Virus record (IMG/VR): IMGVR_UViG_2737471853_000007 | Location: 1-17,015 of that record | DNA from: a virus | Taxonomy: Duplodnaviria; Heunggongvirae; Uroviricota; Caudoviricetes | Strand: one strand, 5' to 3' | DNA length: 17,015 nt | In this document: positions 1 to 17,015 of the stretch, piece by piece | Layout: each line of letters opens with the position of its first letter | Numbering within the stretch: the stretch's first letter is position 1 | Notes under the pieces: generated by a model | The model's input: only the letters and a program-made list of their open reading frames with translations | Told to the model about the DNA's origin: nothing | Database searches by the model: none | Made by a program: the position numbers and the translations under genes

Positions 1-121
1 TATTATGCGGGATACTTACACGTCCATGTCTGATTTGAATAGACTGGTTCAGTACTTTTAATCTGGAAGTTTGTTATTTTTATTTGATTTGAAAAAGATG
101 CCATTGTAACCTCAACAATCC

Positions 122-760
122 TTGTTTCGAGTATTTATTATGATTGACTTCTTAAACCACATATTGCCTATATTATCTGCTATTGCATTCCCTATAGTTG
201 TGGTAGTAGTAACTCTTTATATAGTCTACAGAAGCGGAAGTACATCCATCATTGCTAATAAGATATGGGGGATATTCATTGGTGAGAAAAATTTCTTCAA
301 TGAAGAATTAGCATTAAAAGAAAAGGTTGAACATGATGTTGCTAAATTCAACTTTAAAGTAAATCTGAAAACCAGGAATCTCACTCAAATTGAACAATTT
401 TATAAATTTCTGGAAAAATTCGATCTGGATATAGATAACTTCAAAGGACTTCGTGACTGCTACTTGCCATCATTGCAGAAGGTCAAAAAAACATCTAAAA
501 GTGAAATATTTAATATTGGCCTGGTTGTCTTGTTAATAGGCGGTTTTTTGTTACCTATCTTCATTGGCGTGTTTATATTTAGAGACATTTCTACTTTCGA
601 CGGAGGGAAATTAGCAAATCTATTCTTTTATACGTTTTTGATTTCTGCCAGTACAGTTTTAAGTTTTAGTCAGTTACTTAGAAAGATTAAGTCAATCAGA
701 ACCCGTAAATTGATCTATAAAAAGAAATGCGAATATCTTGCAAACAGAAAGCCCATGTAG
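122..760 (+). CDS. Hypothetical membrane protein, about 3 predicted TM helices; candidate moron
   Basis: 212-aa ORF with hydrophobic stretches (ILPILSAIAFPIVVVVVTLYIVY; IGLVVLLIGGFLLPIFIGVFIF; LFFYTFLISASTVLSF) and a basic C-terminus. The track start is TTG at 122 with no clear SD; an in-frame ATG at 140 (MIDFLNH...) is an alternative start. Opposite strand to the structural operon and convergent on the tape measure gene. No recognisable family motif. Confidence 0.45.
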   Translation: MFRVFIMIDFLNHILPILSAIAFPIVVVVVTLYIVYRSGSTSIIANKIWGIFIGEKNFFNEELALKEKVEHDVAKFNFKVNLKTRNLTQIEQFYKFLEKFDLDIDNFKGLRDCYLPSLQKVKKTSKSEIFNIGLVVLLIGGFLLPIFIGVFIFRDISTFDGGKLANLFFYTFLISASTVLSFSQLLRKIKSIRTRKLIYKKKCEYLANRKPM

Positions 761-768
761 GGCTTTCT
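746..768. terminator. Putative bidirectional hairpin between convergent genes
   Basis: Perfect 9-bp inverted repeat AGAAAGCCC (746-754) / GGGCTTTCT (760-768) with a 5-nt loop, overlapping the stop of the + ORF and abutting the tape measure stop codon at 768-770. T-rich flank on the minus-strand side (TTTCTGTTTG). Confidence 0.45.
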
Positions 769-2978
769 TAAGTATTACGTCTCTGACTGCTTCTTACTGC
801 TTGTGTAACGCTGTTAGCATGCTTCTTCAACATTTCATTGAATTTCTTATCATCACCTGCAACGTCACCCTGAATGATTAAGGGAGCGTTAACGGTGATG
901 TCACCAGCAGTACTACCGCCTTTGTCCTGAGTATCGAGAAACTTAGTCAGCTTCTTGTTAGCTTCTGGCTGGACGACACGCTCACCGGCTTTCAGTACGA
1001 ATGATTTGTTATCGTACCCGGCAGGTAGCTCATCGACACCGCCGTGGAACTGCCCCGCATCAGCACCTTTTGCAGTACTGATAATGCTCAATCCAAGAGA
1101 GGCTACCTGTGCATAGTTCGCAAGGTTTTGAGGCCACGGCGTAGCAAGTGCCTGTGCAAGTGCGGATTGAATGCTTAGTACTGTCTGAGCTATCGTGATC
1201 CCACGTGAAACCATGAATGCCGCTTCGGCTGCACCCGACGATTCACCAAATGCGGCCACCATCGCCCCACTAAGGTTTTGTGCAGTATCTGAGAAGATTG
1301 TGAGTTGTTGCTGTGCATTCTGGTTACTGATATCAATGGCCTGAGCATTGTACTTTGCTGTTATCTGAGCCTTACGCTTTTCGTAGTCTTCATGACCTTT
1401 CAACAGTAAATCATTCTGTGCTAATTCAGCATTCATCGCGTCCTGATTATCATTCAGGCGTTGATCAGTATCATCATAAGCAAATGGATTACCACCATTG
1501 ATACGCTGATTTTGCTGTTGTGATAAGTACCCTTTCTGCTGATCATTTAGCAATCCAGAACTGATTAGAGAATTAGTATCTTTAAGACCTTGATTTGGAT
1601 CTGAATAGCCGACCATAGAATTAATTAGATCAGTACGTTGTTTAGCACCGGAAGTATTCGCATTCTTTAGCATTTCATCAGGATTAATACCGAGTACTTT
1701 AGCTGAATCAGTAATCGTTTTTAAAAGTGCCTTTTGCTGTCTGTCAAACTGCTGTAGGCGTACTTTAAAACCATCTTCCCCAACCTGAGCAAGAGCAGTT
1801 TCTAAATTACGTTGAGCCTGTAGCCGTTTTGCATCTGCCTGCTTTTGAGCTTGTTCTGCTTGCTTGTGTAACTGATCGGCTTTCTTCTGTGCATCTTCAC
1901 GCTGTTTGCCCTGATCTACCCAACCACCTTTAGGGGCTGTCACTGTAGCAATATCATTCTGAAAGTTGCTCACCAGACCTTCAAGATTCTTTTTAGCGTC
2001 GGCGTACTGGTTCCCCTTGCCGTTATCCATCGAGCCAGTATGAAGGGCTGCACCTTGATAGTTTAACGCCCCCGCCATGCGTAGCTTCTCCCAGATATCT
2101 AACATATCCTGTAGACTACCTTTGGATTCCTTTATACGTTGGTTAAGATCCTCAAATAATCCCGCCTCATGTGGCTTTTGATTGGCGGCATCATATACAC
2201 TGTTCATTGCATCAACTAAAGGTGAAAGGCCATCGGCGATAGTACCTTTAATATTAGTGGTTAGCTTAGTTAGATTCTTATCAAATTCCGCGTACTTTTC
2301 GGCTGCTTCATTAGTAACATCGGCGTTCTGTTGCTGGATATATGCAGTTGCATCTGCTTCATTATTGAACTGCTGTAAAGTACTAATCATATGAGATGAA
2401 TCACTTGCTAATGTTTCCATTACGTTGACAATTTCACCCTGAGATTTACCCGCATCACGCATAGCATAAAACGTATGAATAACGGCTTTCATACCGCCAT
2501 CAGTTTGTTTCAAGTACTTGTTATAGTCCTGTAGATTCAGGCCAAACTCTTTTAAATCATCAGACACGCCACCGCCAGCACGAAAGGCATCACCGAGTTT
2601 ATCTAAAGTATCCTTGTTAAAGTCTCCAAACTTATCCATTTCAAGACCAAGACCACTAAACGCCGATGATAGCTGTTGTAGCTGTACTACTGATAGACCA
2701 GTACTTTTACTGATTTCATTCATCTCGCGAACATACTCACGTGAAGACTGTACCAGTGCAGCAAGTCCACCAATACCAATAGCCGCAGCACCTGCAAGGC
2801 CAGTCATAGCAGTACTGAATCCGCCAGCCATCCCACTAAAGCGGCCTGTGAACTCTTCAACTACACCGCCAGCCTTACCACCAAATTCTTCTACTGCTTC
2901 AGTACCTTGCTGTAAAGCCCGCTGTAAGCCACCGGAATCACCGTCAATTTCTACACGGATTACATTATTCTTTGCCAT
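768..2978 (-). CDS. Phage tail tape measure protein
   Basis: 736-aa ORF directly downstream of the G/GT chaperone pair. Gly/Ala-rich hydrophobic N-terminal region (MAGGFSTAMTGLAGAAAIGIGGLAALV), long Q/A/K-rich low-complexity helical middle (QKKADQLHKQAEQAQKQADAKRLQAQRNLE), typical tape-measure composition and operon position. Confidence 0.8.
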   Translation of the reverse strand: MAKNNVIRVEIDGDSGGLQRALQQGTEAVEEFGGKAGGVVEEFTGRFSGMAGGFSTAMTGLAGAAAIGIGGLAALVQSSREYVREMNEISKSTGLSVVQLQQLSSAFSGLGLEMDKFGDFNKDTLDKLGDAFRAGGGVSDDLKEFGLNLQDYNKYLKQTDGGMKAVIHTFYAMRDAGKSQGEIVNVMETLASDSSHMISTLQQFNNEADATAYIQQQNADVTNEAAEKYAEFDKNLTKLTTNIKGTIADGLSPLVDAMNSVYDAANQKPHEAGLFEDLNQRIKESKGSLQDMLDIWEKLRMAGALNYQGAALHTGSMDNGKGNQYADAKKNLEGLVSNFQNDIATVTAPKGGWVDQGKQREDAQKKADQLHKQAEQAQKQADAKRLQAQRNLETALAQVGEDGFKVRLQQFDRQQKALLKTITDSAKVLGINPDEMLKNANTSGAKQRTDLINSMVGYSDPNQGLKDTNSLISSGLLNDQQKGYLSQQQNQRINGGNPFAYDDTDQRLNDNQDAMNAELAQNDLLLKGHEDYEKRKAQITAKYNAQAIDISNQNAQQQLTIFSDTAQNLSGAMVAAFGESSGAAEAAFMVSRGITIAQTVLSIQSALAQALATPWPQNLANYAQVASLGLSIISTAKGADAGQFHGGVDELPAGYDNKSFVLKAGERVVQPEANKKLTKFLDTQDKGGSTAGDITVNAPLIIQGDVAGDDKKFNEMLKKHANSVTQAVRSSQRRNT

Positions 2979-3674
2979 TCTTTTTCTTCCCTAAAACTTG
3001 AGTCTTAATTAACTCTCCTATTGATTTAATATCACTAGATTGTTTATCTTTTGATTTCTCTTTCCGTTCCTGTTCTTTTTCAGCAGTAGTTTTAGTACTG
3101 TCACCGAGTACATCCAGAAAATCAAAATCTTGTACTTTGATACTTTTCCTTGCTTCTGGTGTTATGTTCCCATTACTGATAGTAGTGTAATAACACTGGT
3201 ACGCATGTTTCATCATTTCAATCTGAGTACCGGATGGTTCAATAAAAGCATCGTAAATCATTAGCATATTGAGTACTTCAGGATCTAAGCTAAAGTACTC
3301 TTCTGGTGATAAGCCTCTTTTGTTAACCATCTTACAAAAGTACTTTAATTCGATATCACCCCTTACTTTTTTTCTACTTCATCCGTAGGATTTGAATCAT
3401 TTACGAGTTTGATAATTGCCGCGTATATTTCATTTTGAATGACAAAATCAATACTGTTTACATTAATGCGTCCATCAATATCTTCATCTGAAAAGATAGG
3501 ATCACCATTTTCATCTTTCGCACATAAGATTAGTGTTTGTGCAACATCAGTACATTTTGCAAAGTCTCTGCCATTTGGACGATGAATATAGATAGTTTCA
3601 CCTGCTACTTCGTAGGGTTGTAGTACTGGCTGTAGTTTCTTCATAAGCTGGTTTAAGTTCATTTGTTTCTCCAA
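2965..3674 (-). CDS. Tail assembly chaperone GT-like fusion product made by programmed -1 ribosomal frameshift (shift site at 3366-3372)
   Basis: The minus-strand mRNA at the end of the G ORF reads GAA AAA AAG TAA. The heptamer A AAA AAG (plus coordinates 3366-3372) is a classic -1 slippery site. The -1 frame is open from 3378 through the 121-aa ORF 2965-3330 (KK-VRGDIELKYFCK-MVNKRGLS...), which ends 14 bp inside the tape measure gene. Predicted fusion is about 236 aa. Confidence 0.7.
3363..3674 (-). CDS. Tail assembly chaperone (lambda gpG-like), zero-frame product
   Basis: 103-aa acidic ORF between the major tail protein and tape measure genes, ending in the slippery heptamer. Position and size match the conserved G/GT chaperone arrangement of long-tailed phages. 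Confidence 0.7.
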   Translation of the reverse strand: MEKQMNLNQLMKKLQPVLQPYEVAGETIYIHRPNGRDFAKCTDVAQTLILCAKDENGDPIFSDEDIDGRINVNSIDFVIQNEIYAAIIKLVNDSNPTDEVEKK

Positions 3675-3678
3675 TAAA

Positions 3679-3714
3679 AAAGGGAAAGTACAATACCTTC
3701 CCTTTATTTATTTT
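3679..3714 (-). terminator. Putative rho-independent terminator or attenuator downstream of the major tail protein gene
   Basis: Inverted repeat AAAGGGAA (3679-3686) / TTCCCTTT (3698-3705). On the minus-strand transcript the stem is followed by a U-run (TTTTTT then ATTGG). Lies in the 40-bp gap between the tail protein stop (3715) and the chaperone start (3674). Confidence 0.5.
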
Positions 3715-4179
3715 TTACTCACCAGTACCCGTAGTGATTAGACCTGAATCGATAGCAGCCCCATCTACAGCAAGTGTAAATGTCTTAGTTACTACTTCGT
3801 CTTTGTCACCACCGATAGTAGTACTTGAGACAAAGCACGTATAAACCACATAGAATCCGTTCTCTTTAGTAGCATCTTCAAAATAGCTTAGTTTGATTTG
3901 GCAACGCTTTTGATCATCTGCCAGTTGTTCTAATTTTTGGTGTACTGTGTTATCTGCAAGATAGTTAACCGCAAGTGAAATGTCAGGGATAGATTTAGTA
4001 CCCAATAGTTTACGGTCATATGCTGAGTTAAATGTTTTAACACTAATTACAGTACTTTCAAAACCAGAAGTAGTGAAGGTATTCACCTCTGGTACTTCTG
4101 CAAAATCAGTAGCAACGGTAGAACCCGCAGAACCTACCTCTACAGTAATATTAGCACCAGAAAAAATATCCATAGCCAT
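3715..4179 (-). CDS. Major tail (tube) protein, short form
   Basis: 154-aa ORF immediately upstream of the terminator and G/GT chaperones, the canonical position of the major tail protein. Strong SD (TATAAGGATATAAAAACT-ATG). Paralogous to the N-terminal 140 aa of the 946-aa ORF (shared MA(M)DIFSG and GDKD(E/Q)VVTK(T/S) motifs). Confidence 0.6.
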   Translation of the reverse strand: MAMDIFSGANITVEVGSAGSTVATDFAEVPEVNTFTTSGFESTVISVKTFNSAYDRKLLGTKSIPDISLAVNYLADNTVHQKLEQLADDQKRCQIKLSYFEDATKENGFYVVYTCFVSSTTIGGDKDEVVTKTFTLAVDGAAIDSGLITTGTGE

Positions 4180-4235
4180 AGTTTTTATATCCTTATATAA
4201 GTTTAATCGGGCAACGTCCTGTCACCCTTTTATAT

Positions 4236-7076
4236 TTATTTATTATCGATTAGTGATTGTACTAATACTTTCAAGTTTTCAATTTCAGTACTGAGATCAT
4301 CATTCATCTGTTTTAATGCTTTAATTGCGGCTAAACCATCTAACATCATTGGTGTTTCATCAAGATGGTACAGATCACCAACTTCTTTTACGTATTGTGG
4401 ATCTATATCCATAATCTGTTGTGAAACTACTCCACGGCGTGGTGTCTCGTCTTCATCAGATTTAAAAGTAAAGTTAACAAAGTCCATCCGAGAAATATTA
4501 TCAAGTGCAATATTGAGATCTAATGGTTCACCAATATCTTTGGCCCTTTCATCAGAGACAGCAGATGTAGTCAACTGTGCCCATGTTCCCCACGCCATAG
4601 CATTGGTTTGAACACGTGTATATATGCGATTGCTGGTGTCATAGAATCGCTGCTGATACCACTGGTTAGTAGTACCTGTGCCATTATAGTTCCCAGTGTT
4701 TAACCCTTGAGTTGCCTGAGTGAACAAAGACCCATATACGTTCGCAGCAGCACTCCCCGAAGGTGAGTTAGTCCATGAACCACCAACGGCACGCCATCCT
4801 TGAGCACCTATATTCATATCCGAACCGGAAGAATCGTATGATGTGCCATTAGGGGCAAGTCCTCCAGCAAGGCCAATGGGAGAACCATAGCCCGAAATTG
4901 GCGGTAGATATGCCCAACCCTGTCCAGTGACTGACCCAATCTTATCTCTGAAATAGAAAATAAGTCCCTTACCGGCTTCCTGGCTATTTTCAATTCTTAC
5001 CCGGCGACCTACCACATCATCACCACCACTAACATCTAAGTTGATTGCGGGCCAATCATCCCGCGATACCGTGAGTTGATTGCTGATCACTTGAGGTTGA
5101 TTGAACGTATTTGACCTGTCCAATGTCGGTACTTCATGCCACTGCCATTTACCACTGTTCAGTGATGGTTGTACGCCTCCAGCAAAGACACGATTACCAT
5201 CAGGCTGAACAAGCATTCCAGAATAAGACGGTGAACCATCATACTGTGATACAAAACCAGCACCGCCGAATGATGGAGGGGAATCAATAGTTGCTGTAGT
5301 CGTTCGAATGAACCCTTTCGGTGCATCCTTCATATCGGCAACATGGCGAGGATCTATTCCAAGCCCAACTTCTGATAGCGTCCTGTCAATTGAGTAAATT
5401 TGCTGTCCGTTCAACGTTGCTGCACTGGCTACTATTCCCAAAGTACCTTTGCCTGTTGCTGTTTCGCCACCCGATGCAAACAGACGTACATCAAAATCGT
5501 TACCAGTACCGGAACTATGCATATCAAGGAATGTCAGTACTGCCGTAGTACTACTACCCAGCTCAATACCCCTTGAAGTGGTTGAGTTGCTTCCAATAGC
5601 AATAGATCCGTTGAAGTTCTGCCCCCCATCCCATGTATTGGTAGCGTTGAGCAAAGGTACAGTACCGCCAGATGTACCAACGTTTACCGTCGCAGCCGTA
5701 CCAAGTCCAAGATTCGTTCTTGCCGCCGCAGCCGTGGTCGCTCCAGTACCGCCACTCGTTAGGGGTAATGCAGTAGAAAGGGTTAAGGTCGATAACGTCG
5801 CCTGACCGCCTGTGATAGCGACTGCGTTAGAGTTCTGCACCGCAAGGGAACCTAAACCGAGATTAGTACGGGAAGTGACAATATTATTAAGGTCTGCAAG
5901 ATTACTTGCGATCTTTAGCTGTGCGTCATTAGTAACGTTAGATAAACCAACATCGGCTTTAGTTACTGTCACATTGGATGATAATGCATGACCGTTTACT
6001 GTGATTGTTTTAGGAACCAAATCTGTATTAACATGAGTAGTTAATGTATTAATTGAATTATTAACCTCATCAATATCGCTATCAATTTGTTCTTTCGAAT
6101 ACACATCCAGATTAGTACGGGCAATTTCATTATCAGCGATATCGGCTAAATTACTGATAACTTTTAACTGAGCATCATTAGTGACATTTTCTAATTGAAT
6201 ATCTTGTTTTGTAAGTACTACATCGCTTGAAAGCTCATGACCATTAACGGTACGCTCGACGGGTACAGAACCGGTGTCAGTACTGGTTAATGTAATGTCT
6301 GCTGTTAGTGCTTTACCGTTGACGGTTCGCGTGAGAGGAACATAACGTGCGTCCATCTGTGTAGCCGTGTAGATACGAGTCCATGCCGTGGTGGCATTTT
6401 TTGCGAATAGGCTTAGTGTGCCTGTTTTTGTCATCGCAAATTCAGCAACGCTCGAACCGTCGACAAGCCCTATGCCCATCATATCGGCCCCAGCAGGATT
6501 ACCCTGTTGTGTTGACGGTATTTTGATAAAGCTGTTACCCGTTGGTGTGACTGGTGCGTACTGCGGTATACCAGTAGTGTTAGCACCTACGCCGTAATCC
6601 CCCTGATAGACAGGAAGAAGTGCAGCCATTGTCATTACACGGGCAACTACATCAGCAGGTGTAAAAGAATAGGATTTAGTAACTACCTGATCCTTATCCC
6701 CGGATAATTGAGTACCCGTAACGTAACCATTGACGATGGCATAAGTGATCTGACTTTCTTCTAAATCTAATTGATACTGAATAATGACCTGAAATACAGA
6801 TTGTGATTCAGCCATTTCATCTAAGAATTGGTGCGTAGGATCATCAGGTAAGTATGCAACCACAATATCAAATGGTTCTACTGATTTATCAGATAGTAGT
6901 ACTGTCTTGTACTCATTATCATAGGTTTCAAAATTATTTGTTTCTGACTGGATGGTTAGAGCAGGAAATTCAGTTACATTATTAATAGTAACATTGCCTA
7001 TGCCCTGTGGTGAACGGTTTCCAGTGTCCGTATTATATTGTAAAGTTAATCCCTTACCTGAAAAAATGTCGGCCAT
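4236..7076 (-). CDS. Tail fiber-like protein: N-terminal major-tail-protein-like domain, tandem fiber repeats, C-terminal intramolecular chaperone (peptidase S74-like) domain
   Basis: 946-aa ORF. Residues 1-140 are homologous to the 154-aa tail protein. The middle has tandem repeats (ERTVNGHELSSDVVLTKQDIQLENVTNDAQLKVISNLAD / TITVNGHALSSNVTVTKADVGLSNVTNDAQLKIASNLAD; RTNLGLG twice) and Gly/Ser/Thr-rich fiber-like sequence. The C-terminus (SAVSDERAKDIGEPLDLNIALDNISRMDFVNFTFKS...) matches the Ser-x4-Lys autoproteolytic chaperone module of tail fibers and endosialidases, followed by a coiled-coil tail. Confidence 0.8.
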   Translation of the reverse strand: MADIFSGKGLTLQYNTDTGNRSPQGIGNVTINNVTEFPALTIQSETNNFETYDNEYKTVLLSDKSVEPFDIVVAYLPDDPTHQFLDEMAESQSVFQVIIQYQLDLEESQITYAIVNGYVTGTQLSGDKDQVVTKSYSFTPADVVARVMTMAALLPVYQGDYGVGANTTGIPQYAPVTPTGNSFIKIPSTQQGNPAGADMMGIGLVDGSSVAEFAMTKTGTLSLFAKNATTAWTRIYTATQMDARYVPLTRTVNGKALTADITLTSTDTGSVPVERTVNGHELSSDVVLTKQDIQLENVTNDAQLKVISNLADIADNEIARTNLDVYSKEQIDSDIDEVNNSINTLTTHVNTDLVPKTITVNGHALSSNVTVTKADVGLSNVTNDAQLKIASNLADLNNIVTSRTNLGLGSLAVQNSNAVAITGGQATLSTLTLSTALPLTSGGTGATTAAAARTNLGLGTAATVNVGTSGGTVPLLNATNTWDGGQNFNGSIAIGSNSTTSRGIELGSSTTAVLTFLDMHSSGTGNDFDVRLFASGGETATGKGTLGIVASAATLNGQQIYSIDRTLSEVGLGIDPRHVADMKDAPKGFIRTTTATIDSPPSFGGAGFVSQYDGSPSYSGMLVQPDGNRVFAGGVQPSLNSGKWQWHEVPTLDRSNTFNQPQVISNQLTVSRDDWPAINLDVSGGDDVVGRRVRIENSQEAGKGLIFYFRDKIGSVTGQGWAYLPPISGYGSPIGLAGGLAPNGTSYDSSGSDMNIGAQGWRAVGGSWTNSPSGSAAANVYGSLFTQATQGLNTGNYNGTGTTNQWYQQRFYDTSNRIYTRVQTNAMAWGTWAQLTTSAVSDERAKDIGEPLDLNIALDNISRMDFVNFTFKSDEDETPRRGVVSQQIMDIDPQYVKEVGDLYHLDETPMMLDGLAAIKALKQMNDDLSTEIENLKVLVQSLIDNK
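5847..6335 (-). repeat. Intragenic tandem repeats (TVNG(K/H) fiber repeats) inside the tail fiber gene
   Basis: Three diverged copies are visible at DNA and protein level: the RTVNGKAL copy near 6314-6336, the ERTVNGHEL copy near 6241-6261 and the TITVNGHAL copy near 5991-6012. Each of the last two is followed by an NVTNDAQLK(V/I) block, and the region ends with RTNLGLGS at 5847-5870. Confidence 0.55.
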
Positions 7077-7093
7077 TTTATATCCTTATAGCG

Positions 7094-7486
7094 TTATCTT
7101 GTTTTCTCCGTAACTTGAATATTTATCGTGAATGATAAAGAAACCGAGCCAGTTATAGGGTCTGTTACGATATCGGATTGTTCATATGAGTAAGAGAGAA
7201 TGATTAAATCAGCATCCTTGAAAGCACGTGCTTTCTCATTATCAAAAGTACTGATAATCTGATCATAAGTAATTGACGGTGCAGTATTACCTGATTCTGG
7301 TTTTGGACTAATCAAGTACTGAATAGCAAAGTTACCTGCTTGTCTCTGCCCTCCAAAAGAAATTGAAGACAATGAGTAATCAAATGCTATCTGTTCAAAT
7401 ACATCTGCATCACGTGATACTGTTAGATTCTTAGTTGCGTTGATTAGTTGTTTCATTGTCTGGCGTACTTTCTGTACTAACATCAT
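7094..7486 (-). CDS. Hypothetical phage neck / tail-completion protein (position-based)
   Basis: The track ORF starts at 7564 and overlaps the upstream gene by 77 bp. An in-frame ATG-ATG at 7481-7486 lies 1 nt after the upstream stop (TAA at 7488-7490), giving a coupled about 130-aa product (MMLVQKVRQTMKQ...). No family motif recognised; the role is inferred only from its position between capsid and tail genes. Confidence 0.45.
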   Translation of the reverse strand: MMLVQKVRQTMKQLINATKNLTVSRDADVFEQIAFDYSLSSISFGGQRQAGNFAIQYLISPKPESGNTAPSITYDQIISTFDNEKARAFKDADLIILSYSYEQSDIVTDPITGSVSLSFTINIQVTEKTR

Positions 7487-7487
7487 A

Positions 7488-7811
7488 TTAGTAGTCCTCT
7501 GCAAATGAAGCACCAGCAGAAGTACGAAAGTAGCAATTAACCATACCTGACAGATCATCTTCAATATTATAAATTGTTTGGTTTACACCATCGATGATCA
7601 GTACTGTACCGATATCTATATCAGTATTAACTAAATCATCCTTTCTCATTGTTACGTATGTTTCTGTACTTTCGATAAATCCACCTGCCGCTTCAATAGA
7701 AACGGGAAGTACTTCTACAATTCCAGTAAAAGTACTTCCCGTAGAAGTTTGGATTAATTGACCGAAAGCATTTAGAAACGTATCTTGTTGACCGTTAGAA
7801 AATGCTCTCAT
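7488..7811 (-). CDS. Hypothetical head-tail connector / head completion protein (position-based)
   Basis: 107-aa ORF immediately downstream of the capsid gene (stop 7817, start 7811), tightly packed in the operon. No recognisable motif. Confidence 0.45.
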   Translation of the reverse strand: MRAFSNGQQDTFLNAFGQLIQTSTGSTFTGIVEVLPVSIEAAGGFIESTETYVTMRKDDLVNTDIDIGTVLIIDGVNQTIYNIEDDLSGMVNCYFRTSAGASFAEDY

Positions 7812-7816
7812 AGTTA

Positions 7817-11638
<3,822 letters not shown>

Positions 11639-11641
11639 TTA

Positions 11642-14009
<2,368 letters not shown>

Positions 14010-14023
14010 TTATTGAGATCACT

Positions 14024-14587
14024 ATGTCAGACCGCAACAATGATTTTTCTTTGCTGGTAAAGTTACTGAATAGCTTCCTAAAGAATGAAGATATAAAGAG
14101 GCGTCTGTATTCCTTCGTCAGTAATGAAACTAATGATTGGGAAAAATGGCTACAAATTGAATTTGAGCACTTCCTTAACAAAAAAAGAAAATATGAAGTT
14201 AAACGTGAAGTTACAGCTTTTCTTGACCCTAATAATTTCCCTGCAAGCAAGCTCTCAAAAATCGATATAATAATGAGAGAAAAAGATACCCTTTTTGAAG
14301 ACTATATCTTTATTGAGCTGAAATGTACTAAGCGTTCATCTGCCTTAAAAAGAGGATTGCAAGCAGACCATTTGAAACTCAACTCTATACAAGAATGTAA
14401 GTATCCGATGCGAAATTCTTTCTGTGTTGGTTTTCATTTATATTGCTCATCATCTGTAGTTGAAGAAATGGACAAGTATGTAACCGATACCCTTAAAGGA
14501 TCTTATGCAGTATTCAAATTATGCGAATGTCCGACAAACCGTCATTGCGATTGTGCGTTAAATGAAATAGGTGTTGTACTTTGCTAA
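14024..14587 (+). CDS. Hypothetical small protein with PD-(D/E)xK-like nuclease motif and C-terminal Cys cluster
   Basis: 187-aa ORF divergent from terS with only 38 bp between start codons. Candidate catalytic motif E (QIEFEH) ... D (SKIDIIM) ... ExK (IFIELKC) with restriction-endonuclease-like spacing. C-terminal CxC...HCDC cluster. No AGTACT hexamer, unlike the phage operon. Confidence 0.5.
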   Translation: MSDRNNDFSLLVKLLNSFLKNEDIKRRLYSFVSNETNDWEKWLQIEFEHFLNKKRKYEVKREVTAFLDPNNFPASKLSKIDIIMREKDTLFEDYIFIELKCTKRSSALKRGLQADHLKLNSIQECKYPMRNSFCVGFHLYCSSSVVEEMDKYVTDTLKGSYAVFKLCECPTNRHCDCALNEIGVVLC

Positions 14588-14676
14588 GTGCGGTGCGGGA
14601 AGCTATCTAAACTTCACACATAACTTAAAGAATCCGGTGCCGAAAACTCGCGTTCTAAGCTGGGCTGCCGGAGTAC

Positions 14677-14760
14677 CTTAATTAGTAATTTAACTTAATT
14701 AGCTTGCTTAAAAATACTTACATTCTATTTTACATTAGCATTATTACAATGTTATATTAA
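14677..14760 (+). promoter_or_regulatory. Putative promoter/operator region upstream of the DUF3800 gene
   Basis: 9-bp direct repeat CTTAATTAG at 14677-14685 and 14693-14701, immediately upstream of a -35-like TTGCTT (14704-14709) and a -10-like TATTTT about 16 bp downstream. The AT-rich context makes the exact promoter assignment uncertain. Confidence 0.3.
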
Positions 14761-14766
14761 TAGCAC

Positions 14767-15921
14767 ATGCACATTGTAGCTCATAAAGGAATGACCAAAT
14801 TGGTAAAGAATGTATATTTCGATGAATCAGGATTCACTGGTAATAACTTACTTTCAAAAGATCAGCCTTTTTTTAGTTACGCAGCAGTCGTGACTGATGA
14901 TGAGGAAAGTAAACAGTTTGTTGATTATATAATAAACAAGTACTCGATCGCAGCCGAAGAGCTAAAAGGTAGCACTCTCGTAAATAGCAAGAGATTTCAA
15001 CCAGCCGTAGATGAAATACTTAATCATTTCCGTGGTCGTATGCGTGTGGTTGTAAACGAAAAAAAATATGCCCTCTCAGGAAAATTCTTCGAATATATTT
15101 TTGAGCCAGTATTAGCAGCTAAAAGCTCAATTTTTTACAACCTTAAATTTCACCTATTCATCTCAAATATAATGTATTTTTCTTTAATAGCTAAGGATGA
15201 ATATTCAGAACTATTACATTCGCGATTTGAAGATTTTTCACGAGGTAAAATATTGGTTAATAGTTTTATCGAACCAGTTGTTGGTTCTAAAAATTCTGAA
15301 ATTATGATGGACATTCATGATTTCGCCAAGAATAACATCTCTATAATTGAAGAAGAATATGAAGGCCTTGAGGGTACTGGGATTGATAAGTGGTTATTAG
15401 ATTTGACAACGACTTCTCTTTATAATCTCCTGTGCGATATGAGTAGTAAGTTTGGTACATTGAGAGCTATATGCGACAGCTCAAAACCATTAATTACTCA
15501 TCAGGACTCATTCAATGAGATGATAGGCAATGATGAGATTGTGTTCGAGACTTTTCATGATAAAAAAATCCCGATCACATTTAAGCTATCTGAGCCAATG
15601 ATTCTTTCTGATTCTAAAGTCACGCATGGTATACAAATTGCGGATGTGGTAGCTGCGGCTAGCATTTATGTCCTTAACAAGAAAAAATCGAAAGAAAAAT
15701 ATCATTCTAAATGGCTAAATCATTTTGAAGATGAGATTTTTTATTGGCAGTGCTGTGTTGTTCCCACACCAGAAAACCTTGACCCTAAAAATGTTAACAA
15801 CCATTTAAATAGATATATTTTGCAAGAAATTGCAGAGCGAAGCAGAAACTCAACTCCTGTTTTAGATGATATTGAGAAGGATATAATAAGAATTTCCAGA
15901 ACATTAGCCATGCTACGTTGA
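14767..15921 (+). CDS. DUF3800-family protein (function unknown)
   Basis: 384-aa ORF with both signature motifs recalled for DUF3800: N-terminal DES (VYFDESGFTG) and C-terminal QxxD (THGIQIADVVAAA), within the family length range. The start is uncertain: the ATG at 14767 has no SD, and the alternatives are ATG at 14791 or in-frame TTG at 14800, 9 nt after AAAGGA. Confidence 0.75.
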   Translation: MHIVAHKGMTKLVKNVYFDESGFTGNNLLSKDQPFFSYAAVVTDDEESKQFVDYIINKYSIAAEELKGSTLVNSKRFQPAVDEILNHFRGRMRVVVNEKKYALSGKFFEYIFEPVLAAKSSIFYNLKFHLFISNIMYFSLIAKDEYSELLHSRFEDFSRGKILVNSFIEPVVGSKNSEIMMDIHDFAKNNISIIEEEYEGLEGTGIDKWLLDLTTTSLYNLLCDMSSKFGTLRAICDSSKPLITHQDSFNEMIGNDEIVFETFHDKKIPITFKLSEPMILSDSKVTHGIQIADVVAAASIYVLNKKKSKEKYHSKWLNHFEDEIFYWQCCVVPTPENLDPKNVNNHLNRYILQEIAERSRNSTPVLDDIEKDIIRISRTLAMLR

Positions 15922-15931
15922 AATATATATT

Positions 15932-15961
15932 CTCATGCTGTTTTATCAATAACAGCATGAG
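15932..15961. terminator. Putative bidirectional hairpin between convergent DUF3800 and lipoprotein genes
   Basis: 11-bp perfect inverted repeat CTCATGCTGTT (15932-15942) / AACAGCATGAG (15951-15961) with an 8-nt loop, 11 bp after the DUF3800 stop. Flanks are AT-rich on both sides. Confidence 0.5.
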
Positions 15962-16033
15962 GGTATTATATATTATTTAATTTTTCATCATGCCACATAC
16001 ACTTAATAATTCTATCTCTTTGATTTTTGTTTA

Positions 16034-16306
16034 TTATCTATATTGATGCATTTTTTTAATTCTTTCCTCTCGTATATGGCATGTAGTACTGCCATTGTCC
16101 ACCTGGTAAATCGGATTGTAGGTGCGGCCACAATCACTCTGGAACTGAGGCCGGTAGTACTTCACCCCGTTTCGTGTGCCAGCGTCGAACAGTACTATTG
16201 TAGCCTTGTTATCAACGTTGCCGACAAAGGCTTTATCCATGAATGAGTGATGTACGCTGCCGCAGCCTGTGAGCAGTACTACCAACATGACGATTAGTAT
16301 TTTCAT
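16034..16306 (-). CDS. Small lipoprotein (signal peptide with lipobox LTGC)
   Basis: The track ORF starts at 16342, but the internal ATG at 16306 gives MKILIVMLVVLLTGCGS..., a classic lipoprotein signal peptide with lipobox. SD AGGGA lies about 9 nt upstream, and the start is 10 bp after the upstream gene stop (TAG at 16317-16319). Mature part is about 70 aa with two further Cys. Confidence 0.6.
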   Translation of the reverse strand: MKILIVMLVVLLTGCGSVHHSFMDKAFVGNVDNKATIVLFDAGTRNGVKYYRPQFQSDCGRTYNPIYQVDNGSTTCHIREERIKKMHQYR

Positions 16307-16316
16307 TGTTATATCC

Positions 16317-16826
16317 CTATAGAAGTTGTTCGCATTGTTCAAAGCGGATTGGCCTGTACTCTCCCTGTACTGCCCATACCCCCGACTCTCGTAAAATCCT
16401 GTGATTTCGATTGCTGCTGACTTGTACGATCACCTTGTCGCAGTACTGCATGATGTTATTGATGAGTACCGGGAAGATCAGCCGCTCTATGTGTTCTTCA
16501 GTGAACCGTCTATTTAGTCGAACTAAGTCGTAACCGTCCGTTAGCAGTGGTTCAGCAGCCATGTACCGTATGAATGGTAGATCTTCATAGCGTGTACCTG
16601 TGCCAGTACTGAGCACGCACAACAGCCCCTTTTCTTTGAACCATGCGGCTTTACCCTGAATCATTCTTAACTGGTTCTGATAGACCACGTGACGGATATA
16701 TTCACTTTCTTTTCCTGCCCCCATCAGTACCTGGCAACCGTTTATCAGTACACGGGTTTCCAGCTCTACGCCGAGTAACATACCGTCCAATGAAGTGATC
16801 GGAATTGCCCAATGTTCGAGTTTCAT
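16317..16826 (-). CDS. Hypothetical protein with degenerate EAL-like (YdiV-like) features
   Basis: 169-aa ORF. LLGVELETRVL resembles the EAL signature region (E. coli YdiV: LVGVELITHF, as recalled), LSTGTGTRYEDL resembles the DDFGTGYSS region, and C-terminal VWAVQGEY resembles the QGY(LF) motif. It is shorter than a full EAL domain, so the assignment is weak. Confidence 0.35.
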   Translation of the reverse strand: MKLEHWAIPITSLDGMLLGVELETRVLINGCQVLMGAGKESEYIRHVVYQNQLRMIQGKAAWFKEKGLLCVLSTGTGTRYEDLPFIRYMAAEPLLTDGYDLVRLNRRFTEEHIERLIFPVLINNIMQYCDKVIVQVSSNRNHRILRESGVWAVQGEYRPIRFEQCEQLL

Positions 16827-16950
16827 GTTGATCTCTCAGTTGTCATAACTGATTGATAATTGATCATTTTTAACCATTGATCAAATTAAAATGATCGATA
16901 ATTACATTTCTACCGTTTTTAGTGGTAAGTATTTTGATGGCTGGATCTGT
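16827..16950 (-). promoter_or_regulatory. GATC-rich upstream region with repeated TTGATCA-like motifs
   Basis: Five GATC sites in about 120 bp (16830-16833, 16862-16865, 16879-16882, 16893-16896, 16944-16947), embedded in repeated ATTGAT(C)A motifs (GATTGATAATTGATCATTTTTAACCATTGATCAAATTAAAATGATCGATAATT) directly upstream of the start codon at 16826. Confidence 0.3.
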
Positions 16951-17015
16951 GCGAAATGTGATGCAATACTGTATGGATAACCAGTATTAATGTAGTGTAA
17001 ATAGACCCGTTTTAG

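Follow-up and report, generated by a model that had tools for sequence, protein, structure and literature searches.

We analysed a region beside the packaging genes of a tailed phage (Caudoviricetes) represented by positions 1 to 17,015 of IMG/VR record IMGVR_UViG_2737471853_000007; this 17,015-nucleotide (nt) stretch is referred to as the window. Its late operon, on the minus strand, carries a tape-measure-like gene, tail genes, a protease-capsid fusion, a portal gene, and the large and small terminase genes. The small terminase gene, terS (13437-13985, minus strand; phrog_57, E 5e-22, with a weak match to Phage_Nu1), is followed in the operon by a gpA-type large terminase gene, TerL (11642-13531, minus strand). 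Two open reading frames (ORFs) on the plus strand diverge from terS, placed as in a preliminary description of the locus, which had taken them for a single two-gene cassette. ORF1 (14024-14587; 187 amino acids, aa) has its ATG 38 bp from the terS start, and ORF2 (14767-15921), on the same strand with a spacing of 179 bp, encodes a DUF3800 protein of 384 aa in its longest form, or of 373 aa from the TTG at 14800 that RefSeq annotates as the start on a 99%-identical copy. Between them lies a conserved non-coding phage element (14620-14690, core GGTGCCGAAAACTCGCG ... GGAGTACCT). A promoter-like site precedes ORF2 (14729-14758, plus strand; TTTACA, 18 nt and TATATT, with TG upstream, 10 of 12 matches in a consensus scan), and a perfect hairpin with a 16-bp stem (15927-15966), terminator-like on both strands in a terminator scan, stands directly 3′ of the ORF2 stop. 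A native lipoprotein-like gene of 102 aa (16034-16342, minus strand; family F5, conserved in relatives) forms the right border of a variable slot of which terS is the left landmark.

The phage belongs to a lineage without a close cultured relative. Megablast of 13400-16400 against 50,697 GenBank phage records, intended to locate the genome ends (cos) by way of a cultured relative, returned no match, and the best TerL match among GenBank phages, in Escherichia phage DCP80, is 35% identical. The lineage consists of uncultured temperate enterobacterial phages. They integrate by means of a serine recombinase, and the hexamer AGTACT saturates their native DNA.

To determine whether ORF1 and ORF2 form a pair, 152 loci were fetched and all were screened with hidden Markov models for both families. 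The two families were found together only in a prophage of E. coli AREA_C483 (L003) and in three IMG/VR contigs, all of them copies of the window phage at ≥98.7% identity. Co-occurrence and adjacency across unrelated genomes, as expected of a two-component system, were thus not seen, and the pair essentially never recurs elsewhere, an outcome that the preliminary description had itself named as fatal to its proposal. Among complete E. coli genomes, 2 of 5,426 matched. AREA_C483 carries the whole stretch at 98.7% identity as a prophage between mipA and yeaG; this prophage is decayed and keeps both ORF1 (99% identical) and DUF3800 (100% identical) intact. At 15241-19339 of that locus, IS3, IS5 and ISSen4 interrupt the terminase gene, and the portal-to-tail genes have been lost. 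In E. coli G3/10 the match starts at window position 14605, and the related prophage there has terS followed by DUF3800, with no ORF1.

Each gene is common without the other. ORF1 homologues were detected in 47 IMG/VR loci as well as in metagenome and Logan contigs, and in every locus that includes the flank the homologue stands divergently beside terS, over a range of TerL identity of 42-100%. DUF3800 accompanies ORF1 only in the three contigs that are copies of the window phage, and is missing from L001, L002 and L008-L056. Conversely, five more relatives (L060-L063 and L149) have terS and then DUF3800 without ORF1, and DUF3800 was found without ORF1 in at least 12 distinct loci overall. The gene is also present outside the lineage: DUF3800 occurs alone at the att-proximal end of a Pseudomonas prophage, in a Serratia islet beside icd and an integrase fragment, as single-gene cassettes in the Vibrio cholerae superintegron, and in a P2-like prophage (L064, 6982-9146), where it adjoins a DUF4062 gene at a position flanked by gpU and the tail-fibre genes. 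The P2-like position represents another cargo site for DUF3800.

An unbiased sample of the lineage, made up of 80 distinct contigs gathered through terS alone, gave the same picture. ORF1 was present in 28 of the 80 and was always the first gene beside terS; DUF3800 was present in 8, of which 5 lacked ORF1 and 3 were the window phage; and about 40 had neither gene. We conclude with high confidence that ORF1 and ORF2 are independent of each other.

Nucleotide comparisons placed the two genes at separate insertion points. Relatives with ORF1 only align with the window from terS to 14647-14654 and then again from about 16068, while in relatives with DUF3800 only the alignment starts at 14605, spans ORF2 and continues into the native genes that follow. 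Only 14605-14654, which forms part of the conserved non-coding element, is common to both groups at the nucleotide level. Using nhmmer, the element was found in 39 of the 80 terS-sampled relatives, and in all but three its distance upstream of terS followed the presence of ORF1: 56-104 bp in phages without the gene, and 632-682 bp, immediately beyond the ORF1 stop, in phages that have it. This fixed position places ORF1 between terS and the element, and DUF3800 and other variable genes beyond it. In L094, which has neither gene, a 45-bp stretch of the element is 100% identical. In L134 a PLD nuclease gene is inserted between the element and terS, as ORF1 is elsewhere. The element is a candidate cos site or late-operon control element.

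The outer boundaries of the DUF3800 segment could also be traced. In two divergent DUF3800 loci (L063 and L102) nucleotide homology with the window spans 14748-15966 and ends at the hairpin, and in other divergent loci it is limited to the coding region; the hairpin thus travels with the DUF3800 gene. On the terS side, there is no nucleotide homology over 13840-14605 between ORF1-bearing phages and L004 or L060-62, which have a different terS 5′ end. The same is true of ORF1-less relatives more generally: they have a different terS 5′ end and a terminator hairpin, and their flanks are not colinear with those of ORF1-bearing phages. In five of them (L094, L101, L107, L109 and L116) a perfect hairpin followed by a T-run is found on the terS sense strand, within the roughly 40 bp that directly precede the terS start codon; the window phage lacks it. 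A terminator ahead of the late operon suggests that in these ORF1-less relatives the operon may be controlled by antitermination.

We next examined what else occupies the slot, defined as the genes between terS and the native block (homologues of 16034-16342 and 16317-16826). Slot genes were clustered into families and 20 family representatives were scanned. The occupants include an Old-type ATPase-TOPRIM nuclease (F38; PADLOC Old, 251 bits), PDC-M45A/C proteins (F18 and F19; DuOB, DUF488) adjoined by a protein with mSLOG and DUF4326 domains (F20), PDC-S29 (F39, EcsC-like), PDC-S31 (F26, DUF2971), a PLD-family nuclease (F52) and an 8xMP/RipA-type membrane protein (F12). The presence in relatives of Old, PDC-M45, PDC-S29, PDC-S31 and PLD nuclease genes, which are known or candidate defence genes, identifies the slot as an accessory and defence hotspot, in agreement with the earlier suggestion that genes at this module boundary might serve defence. 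The gene that follows ORF1 varies from phage to phage (DUF3800, F17, F7 with F10, F28, F29, F13, PDC-S29, F41, F49 or PDC-M45), in other phages native genes follow ORF1 directly, and each type of follower is also seen in phages that lack the gene. No fixed partner can therefore be assigned to ORF1. In L002 the slot region (11767-14759 of that locus) encodes a DUF3944 protein and a 425-aa reverse transcriptase (RVT_1) with no GTAC; this could be retron, defence-associated reverse transcriptase (DRT) or abortive infection (Abi)-type cargo.

Defence hotspots of temperate phages and their satellites, including the P2 old/tin and Z/fun loci and the P4 hotspot, have reportedly been described by Rousset et al. 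2022. As in P2 and P4, the slot beside terS has a fixed position in an otherwise conserved prophage and holds alternative, unrelated cargo, with an Old-family gene among its occupants. Unlike them, the present lineage has a gpA/Nu1-type terminase, a protease-capsid fusion and a serine recombinase, the slot lies directly beside terS, and its candidate defence occupants include ORF1 and this type of DUF3800 protein.

Base composition provides a separate measure of which genes are native. AGTACT is the commonest hexamer in the window, with 57 copies compared to 5.0 ± 2.3 in shuffled sequences, and it occurs in all three codon frames (27/7/21). Over 14024-15921 there is 1 copy, where the rest of the window would predict 7.0 (Poisson P=0.007); the 2.37-kb gap at 13717-16084 likewise contains just 1 (P=0.001). 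The GC content of 14024-15921 is 0.34, versus 0.39 for the window. The preliminary description had regarded both genes as compositionally foreign. This holds for the region as a whole and for ORF1 and DUF3800 genes pooled from relatives; for ORF1 of the window taken alone, the depletion is not significant (0 copies versus 1.95 expected, P=0.14).

When densities were pooled over the 80 relatives, structural genes had 3.18 AGTACT and 9.1 GTAC per kb, and native non-structural families F1, F2, F5 and F6 had 3.0-7.5 and 10.7-13.7 per kb, respectively, with F5, the family of 16034-16342, at 7.5 AGTACT per kb. By comparison, ORF1 genes had 0.43 and 3.4 per kb (28 genes, 7 AGTACT copies in 16 kb), DUF3800 genes 0.66 and 2.5, and Old genes 0 and 0.8; the remaining slot families were similarly low. 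Motif density thus separates native genes from cargo, and ORF1 is cargo despite its fixed position. Considering composition together with the slot comparisons, we are confident that the site is a hotspot and that both genes are cargo within it.

AGTACT ranked first among hexamers in most phage loci analysed. The saturation belongs to the phage lineage as a whole and not to the host: about 19 kb of E. coli DNA that flanks the AREA_C483 prophage contains 1 copy, compared to about 60 in the prophage of about 25 kb. Across the lineage, AGTACT and GTAC are over-represented about 10-fold in native genes, in all frames and down to a TerL identity of about 43%, and cargo is at background. In L015-L017 and L056 the top hexamer is TAGTAC instead of AGTACT and GTAC is still enriched, and the selected motif may therefore have shifted within the lineage. 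A literature search on AGTACT enrichment in prophages returned nothing relevant. One candidate, that ORF1 is a ScaI-like enzyme or otherwise reads AGTACT, was rejected, as AGTACT and GTAC densities were equal in 26 phages with ORF1 and 47 without it (P=0.34 and 0.54). Two other genes of the window stand out by composition. With 4 copies in 309 bp, the lipoprotein-like gene at 16034-16342 is the most AGTACT-dense in the window; it also gave weak matches to PD-T4-4_B (E 0.006) and to the Cor superinfection-exclusion family phrog_1119 (E 0.004). A gene for a DUF6216 membrane protein (122-760, plus strand; E 1e-21) adjoins the tape-measure-like gene; given its GC content of 0.31 and its 0 AGTACT copies versus 3 expected, it probably represents a second piece of cargo, located at the opposite end of the structural operon.

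ORF1 could not be assigned to a family by sequence: it had no match in Pfam, PHROGs, PADLOC or the PDB sequence set, a profile of 112 family members gave nothing, and a scan of the 112 members themselves yielded a meaningful Pfam match in none. Within PADLOC, no family was found at E≤1, with Shedu and the other catalogued single-gene nuclease defences included. A word-indexed search of 5.8 billion proteins recovered homologues in 7 clusters at 57-99% identity, and little was gained by word-indexed searching with a wide ORF1 profile (13 hits). Profile searching carried out exhaustively over 1.84 billion representatives defined a family of 194 representatives at E≤1e-3, mostly of about 180 aa.

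The residues that had first suggested a PD-(D/E)xK nuclease are conserved within this family. Among 8 close homologues, and likewise among 20 phage homologues with identities down to about 27%, E46 (in QIEFEH), D81 (in KIDII) and E98-x-K100 (in FIELK) never vary, and they are at least 90% conserved across the 112 distant members. An AlphaFold model of high confidence (predicted local distance difference test, pLDDT, 90.5; predicted template modelling score, pTM, 0.86) has a restriction-endonuclease-like α/β core, the fold of the PD-(D/E)xK superfamily. In the model D81 lies in strand 77-86 and E98 and K100 in strand 94-102, giving the arrangement D...(D/E)xK on consecutive strands together with a glutamate on a helix. 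Foldseek searches against the PDB gave only weak matches, all of the same class (R2 endonuclease, MGME1, AF1548, Cas4, SduA and Can2). The core fold and the E...D...ExK layout are shared with Shedu SduA, NucC, type II restriction endonucleases (SwaI, BglII and BamHI) and CinB. The cysteine cluster noted earlier (C101, C125, C141, C167, C169, C175 and C177) is also genuine and is limited to the phage subfamily. C167 and C169 are invariant, and C175 and C177 are replaced only by H/E or D; the C-terminal motif of the phage homologues is CxCx5(C/H)x(C/D), which reads CxCx5CxC in the window. ORF1 is thus predicted to be a divergent, previously unannotated PD-(D/E)xK nuclease with an intact active site. 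A type II restriction-modification system would be expected to have a methyltransferase gene next to that of the endonuclease, but none adjoins ORF1 in the window or in relatives; the sole methyltransferase seen lies about 9 kb from ORF1, in L003. Two distant homologues were located in non-phage chromosomal contexts, as solitary genes that provided no clear lead.

ORF2 matches Pfam PF12686 at 38 bits, above the cut-off of 21 (E 3.3e-9, profile positions 1-145 of 149), which supports its original identification as a DUF3800 protein, and a match to phrog_12991 ("unknown function") covers its full length (E 8.5e-119). At E≤1e-3 there are 311 homologues, which in E. coli, Enterobacter, Serratia, Vibrio and others are annotated as DUF3800 proteins, and PF12686 was present in 120 of 120 homologues among the matches listed. 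Both motifs of the family are present and near-invariant: in 65 homologues D19, E20, D237, Q290 and D293 never vary, with at least 90% conservation of S21, corresponding to an N-terminal DE(S) motif (D19-E20-S21) and a C-terminal QxxD (Q290-x-x-D293). The predicted fold is RNase H-like, of the RNase HII/HIII type, and the modelled catalytic core is RNase HII-like, DE...D...QxxD. The family had been described as having no assigned function, but an RNase H-like nuclease is already predicted in the literature, serving type VII retrons as effector and Cas12/Cas13 loci as accessory protein. DUF3800 has been modelled on RNase H2 as an associated or fused protein of type VII retrons (PMC7736814), and has been described as an accessory nuclease with an RNase H fold in some Cas12a2, V-A2 and VI-F loci (PMC10910872, PMC12669027).

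ORF2 resembles the DUF3800 proteins of retron VII, Cas12a2, Cas12a3 and Cas13 loci in its Pfam family, its RNase H2-like predicted fold and its N-terminal DE motif, and linkage to immunity loci is common to all. It differs from them in being encoded by a stand-alone gene that moves singly. No reverse transcriptase ORF was found in the window and no CRISPR array nearby, its neighbours being ORF1 and the lipoprotein-like gene; unlike retron VII and TPR-DUF3800 proteins, it also lacks msr/msd RNA, a TPR domain and any match to a PADLOC model, retron models included. Its QxxD motif is intact, whereas retron-linked DUF3800 proteins lack the Q (PMC7736814). Its identity to RNases HII and HIII (PDB 1io2, 4py5, 2d0a and 3puf) is only 11-14%, the third and fourth catalytic positions differ (D237, QxxD), and a large helical insertion (approximately residues 99-230) and a C-terminal helical domain are added; nor is it a housekeeping gene. 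The promoter-like site upstream of ORF2 is a consensus match only, and the number of such sites in the region is not above that in shuffled sequences.

Taken together, these data probably describe two independent single-gene cargo nucleases in a hotspot, plausibly prophage-encoded immunity genes. According to this interpretation, two single-gene modules (morons) would occupy neighbouring insertion points between terS and the next native gene: a small PD-(D/E)xK nuclease (ORF1) between terS and the conserved element and, beyond the element, a stand-alone DUF3800 gene with its own promoter-like site and terminator hairpin. Each gene alone might supply a nuclease, expressed from the prophage, that guards the lysogen from other phages. 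ORF1 would cut invading DNA, and the DUF3800 protein, acting directly or as the effector of abortive infection, would cut RNA:DNA hybrids or structured nucleic-acid intermediates. Such substrates are suggested for DUF3800 by its RNase HII-like core and by the links in the literature to retron multicopy single-stranded DNA (msDNA) and RNA-guided systems. The intact state of both genes in the decayed AREA_C483 prophage counts in favour of this interpretation. We propose tentatively that the two genes act in defence, which we judge about as likely as not.

Several considerations weigh against a role in immunity. Neither protein matches any PADLOC model, and association with a hotspot is weak evidence, as most of the slot families there are without a known role. 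A solitary DNA nuclease in a lysogen needs to discriminate self from non-self, and no means of doing so was identified for ORF1. Expression in the lysogen would depend on a promoter recognised by consensus match. Finally, ORF1 is fixed beside terS and its divergence tracks that of terS (rho 0.68 between ORF1 identity and terS identity), which could mean that it has a role on the side of the phage.

This last point leads to the alternative that ORF1 is a nuclease linked to packaging or to terS, or else a free-standing, selfish endonuclease of the homing type that holds on to its site next to terS. The gene is next to terS, with a gap of -27 to 80 bp, in every ORF1-bearing locus with the terS flank captured, its presence or absence is polymorphic at one fixed site, and the phages that bear it have a different terS 5′ end. 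ORF1 usually diverges faster, with a median identity of about 35% where terS is 50-85% identical, yet some alleles share 92-94% identity although the terS genes next to them share only 64-68%; ORF1 therefore evolves fast and is exchanged between phages. Such exchange is in keeping with a selfish gene, but evolution so much faster than that of terS is unlike a recently spreading homing gene. A clean insertion, as a homing model would have it, is also disfavoured by flanks that differ between phages with and without ORF1. With respect to packaging, about two-thirds of relatives with the same gpA-type terminase are without ORF1, so packaging does not need it; the gene is transcribed away from the late operon and has cargo composition, and its distant homologues are solitary chromosomal genes. 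We consider a phage-side or selfish ORF1 unlikely.

Phage accessory regions hold anti-defence as well as defence genes, and one or both proteins could instead destroy immune nucleic acids of the host, with DUF3800 directed at retron msDNA or at guide or signalling RNAs. An RNase H-like fold would suit RNA-DNA hybrids such as msDNA (PMC7736814). This seems improbable: those slot neighbours that can be identified belong to defence systems rather than being anti-defence genes; DUF3800 genes reside in chromosomal integron cassettes and decayed prophage remnants, where counter-defence would bring the host no benefit; and the literature places DUF3800 on the defence side, in retron VII and Cas12a2 loci.

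DUF3800 might also work with an unrecognised non-coding RNA encoded in its flanks, the functional unit being protein plus RNA. Eleven unrelated structured RNA motifs have been reported near DUF3800 genes by Weinberg et al. (PMC5737381), and both sides of ORF2 have non-coding flanks of 112-180 bp. However, none of these motifs (Rfam DUF3800-I to XI) matched in the window or in 9 other DUF3800 loci. No Rfam family reached its gathering score in the window or in those 9 loci, and none was found at E≤10 in 13900-16100. The spacer upstream of ORF2 folds no better than shuffled sequences (z -0.02 and -0.59), and a known RNA motif or Rfam family beside ORF2 was rejected. In divergent loci, moreover, the conserved DNA shrinks to the ORF and hairpin (14748-15966) or to the coding region only, and a protein-RNA unit is accordingly given a rather small chance.

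The original proposal, a two-component defence or abortive-infection system with ORF1 as effector and DUF3800 as partner, acquired horizontally as one, would account for two adjacent, AGTACT-poor genes that lie 179 bp apart on one strand with no terminator detected between them, but it is highly improbable given that they co-occur in one phage clone only and are each common without the other, that they lie on opposite sides of a conserved phage element in a window that looks recombinant (an ORF1-type left arm to 14647-14654 and a DUF3800-type right arm from 14605), and that DUF3800 moves singly in integron cassettes and other prophages.

With two independent cargo nucleases as the favoured interpretation, much of the locus falls into kinds already known: cargo genes at prophage hotspots are familiar, as are nuclease defences that consist of one gene and DUF3800 proteins predicted to be RNase H-like accessories of immunity systems. 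What is new is the unannotated ORF1 family, a stand-alone, mobile type of DUF3800 in a hotspot, and a terS-proximal hotspot in an uncultured lineage. A stronger version, in which the ORF1 family (at least 194 clusters at 50% identity) and the DUF3800 type of about 375 aa (phrog_12991) are two new single-gene anti-phage nucleases in an undescribed terS-proximal hotspot, with AGTACT density flagging the cargo, is possible but doubtful.

The locus also illustrates that adjacency and shared foreign composition do not make an operon, as comparative context split an apparent cassette into two modules. The lineage-wide saturation with AGTACT is a more surprising feature than the two genes themselves, and the unannotated slot families (F7, F10, F13, F17, F28, F29, F41 and F49) provide a compact place in which to seek new immunity genes. 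If either ORF1 or ORF2 protects lysogens, a single-gene nuclease system would join the anti-phage repertoire. In the case of ORF2, a stand-alone member of the DUF3800 family, which to date has appeared solely as a predicted accessory nuclease in retrons and in Cas12/Cas13 loci, would thereby gain a function for the first time.

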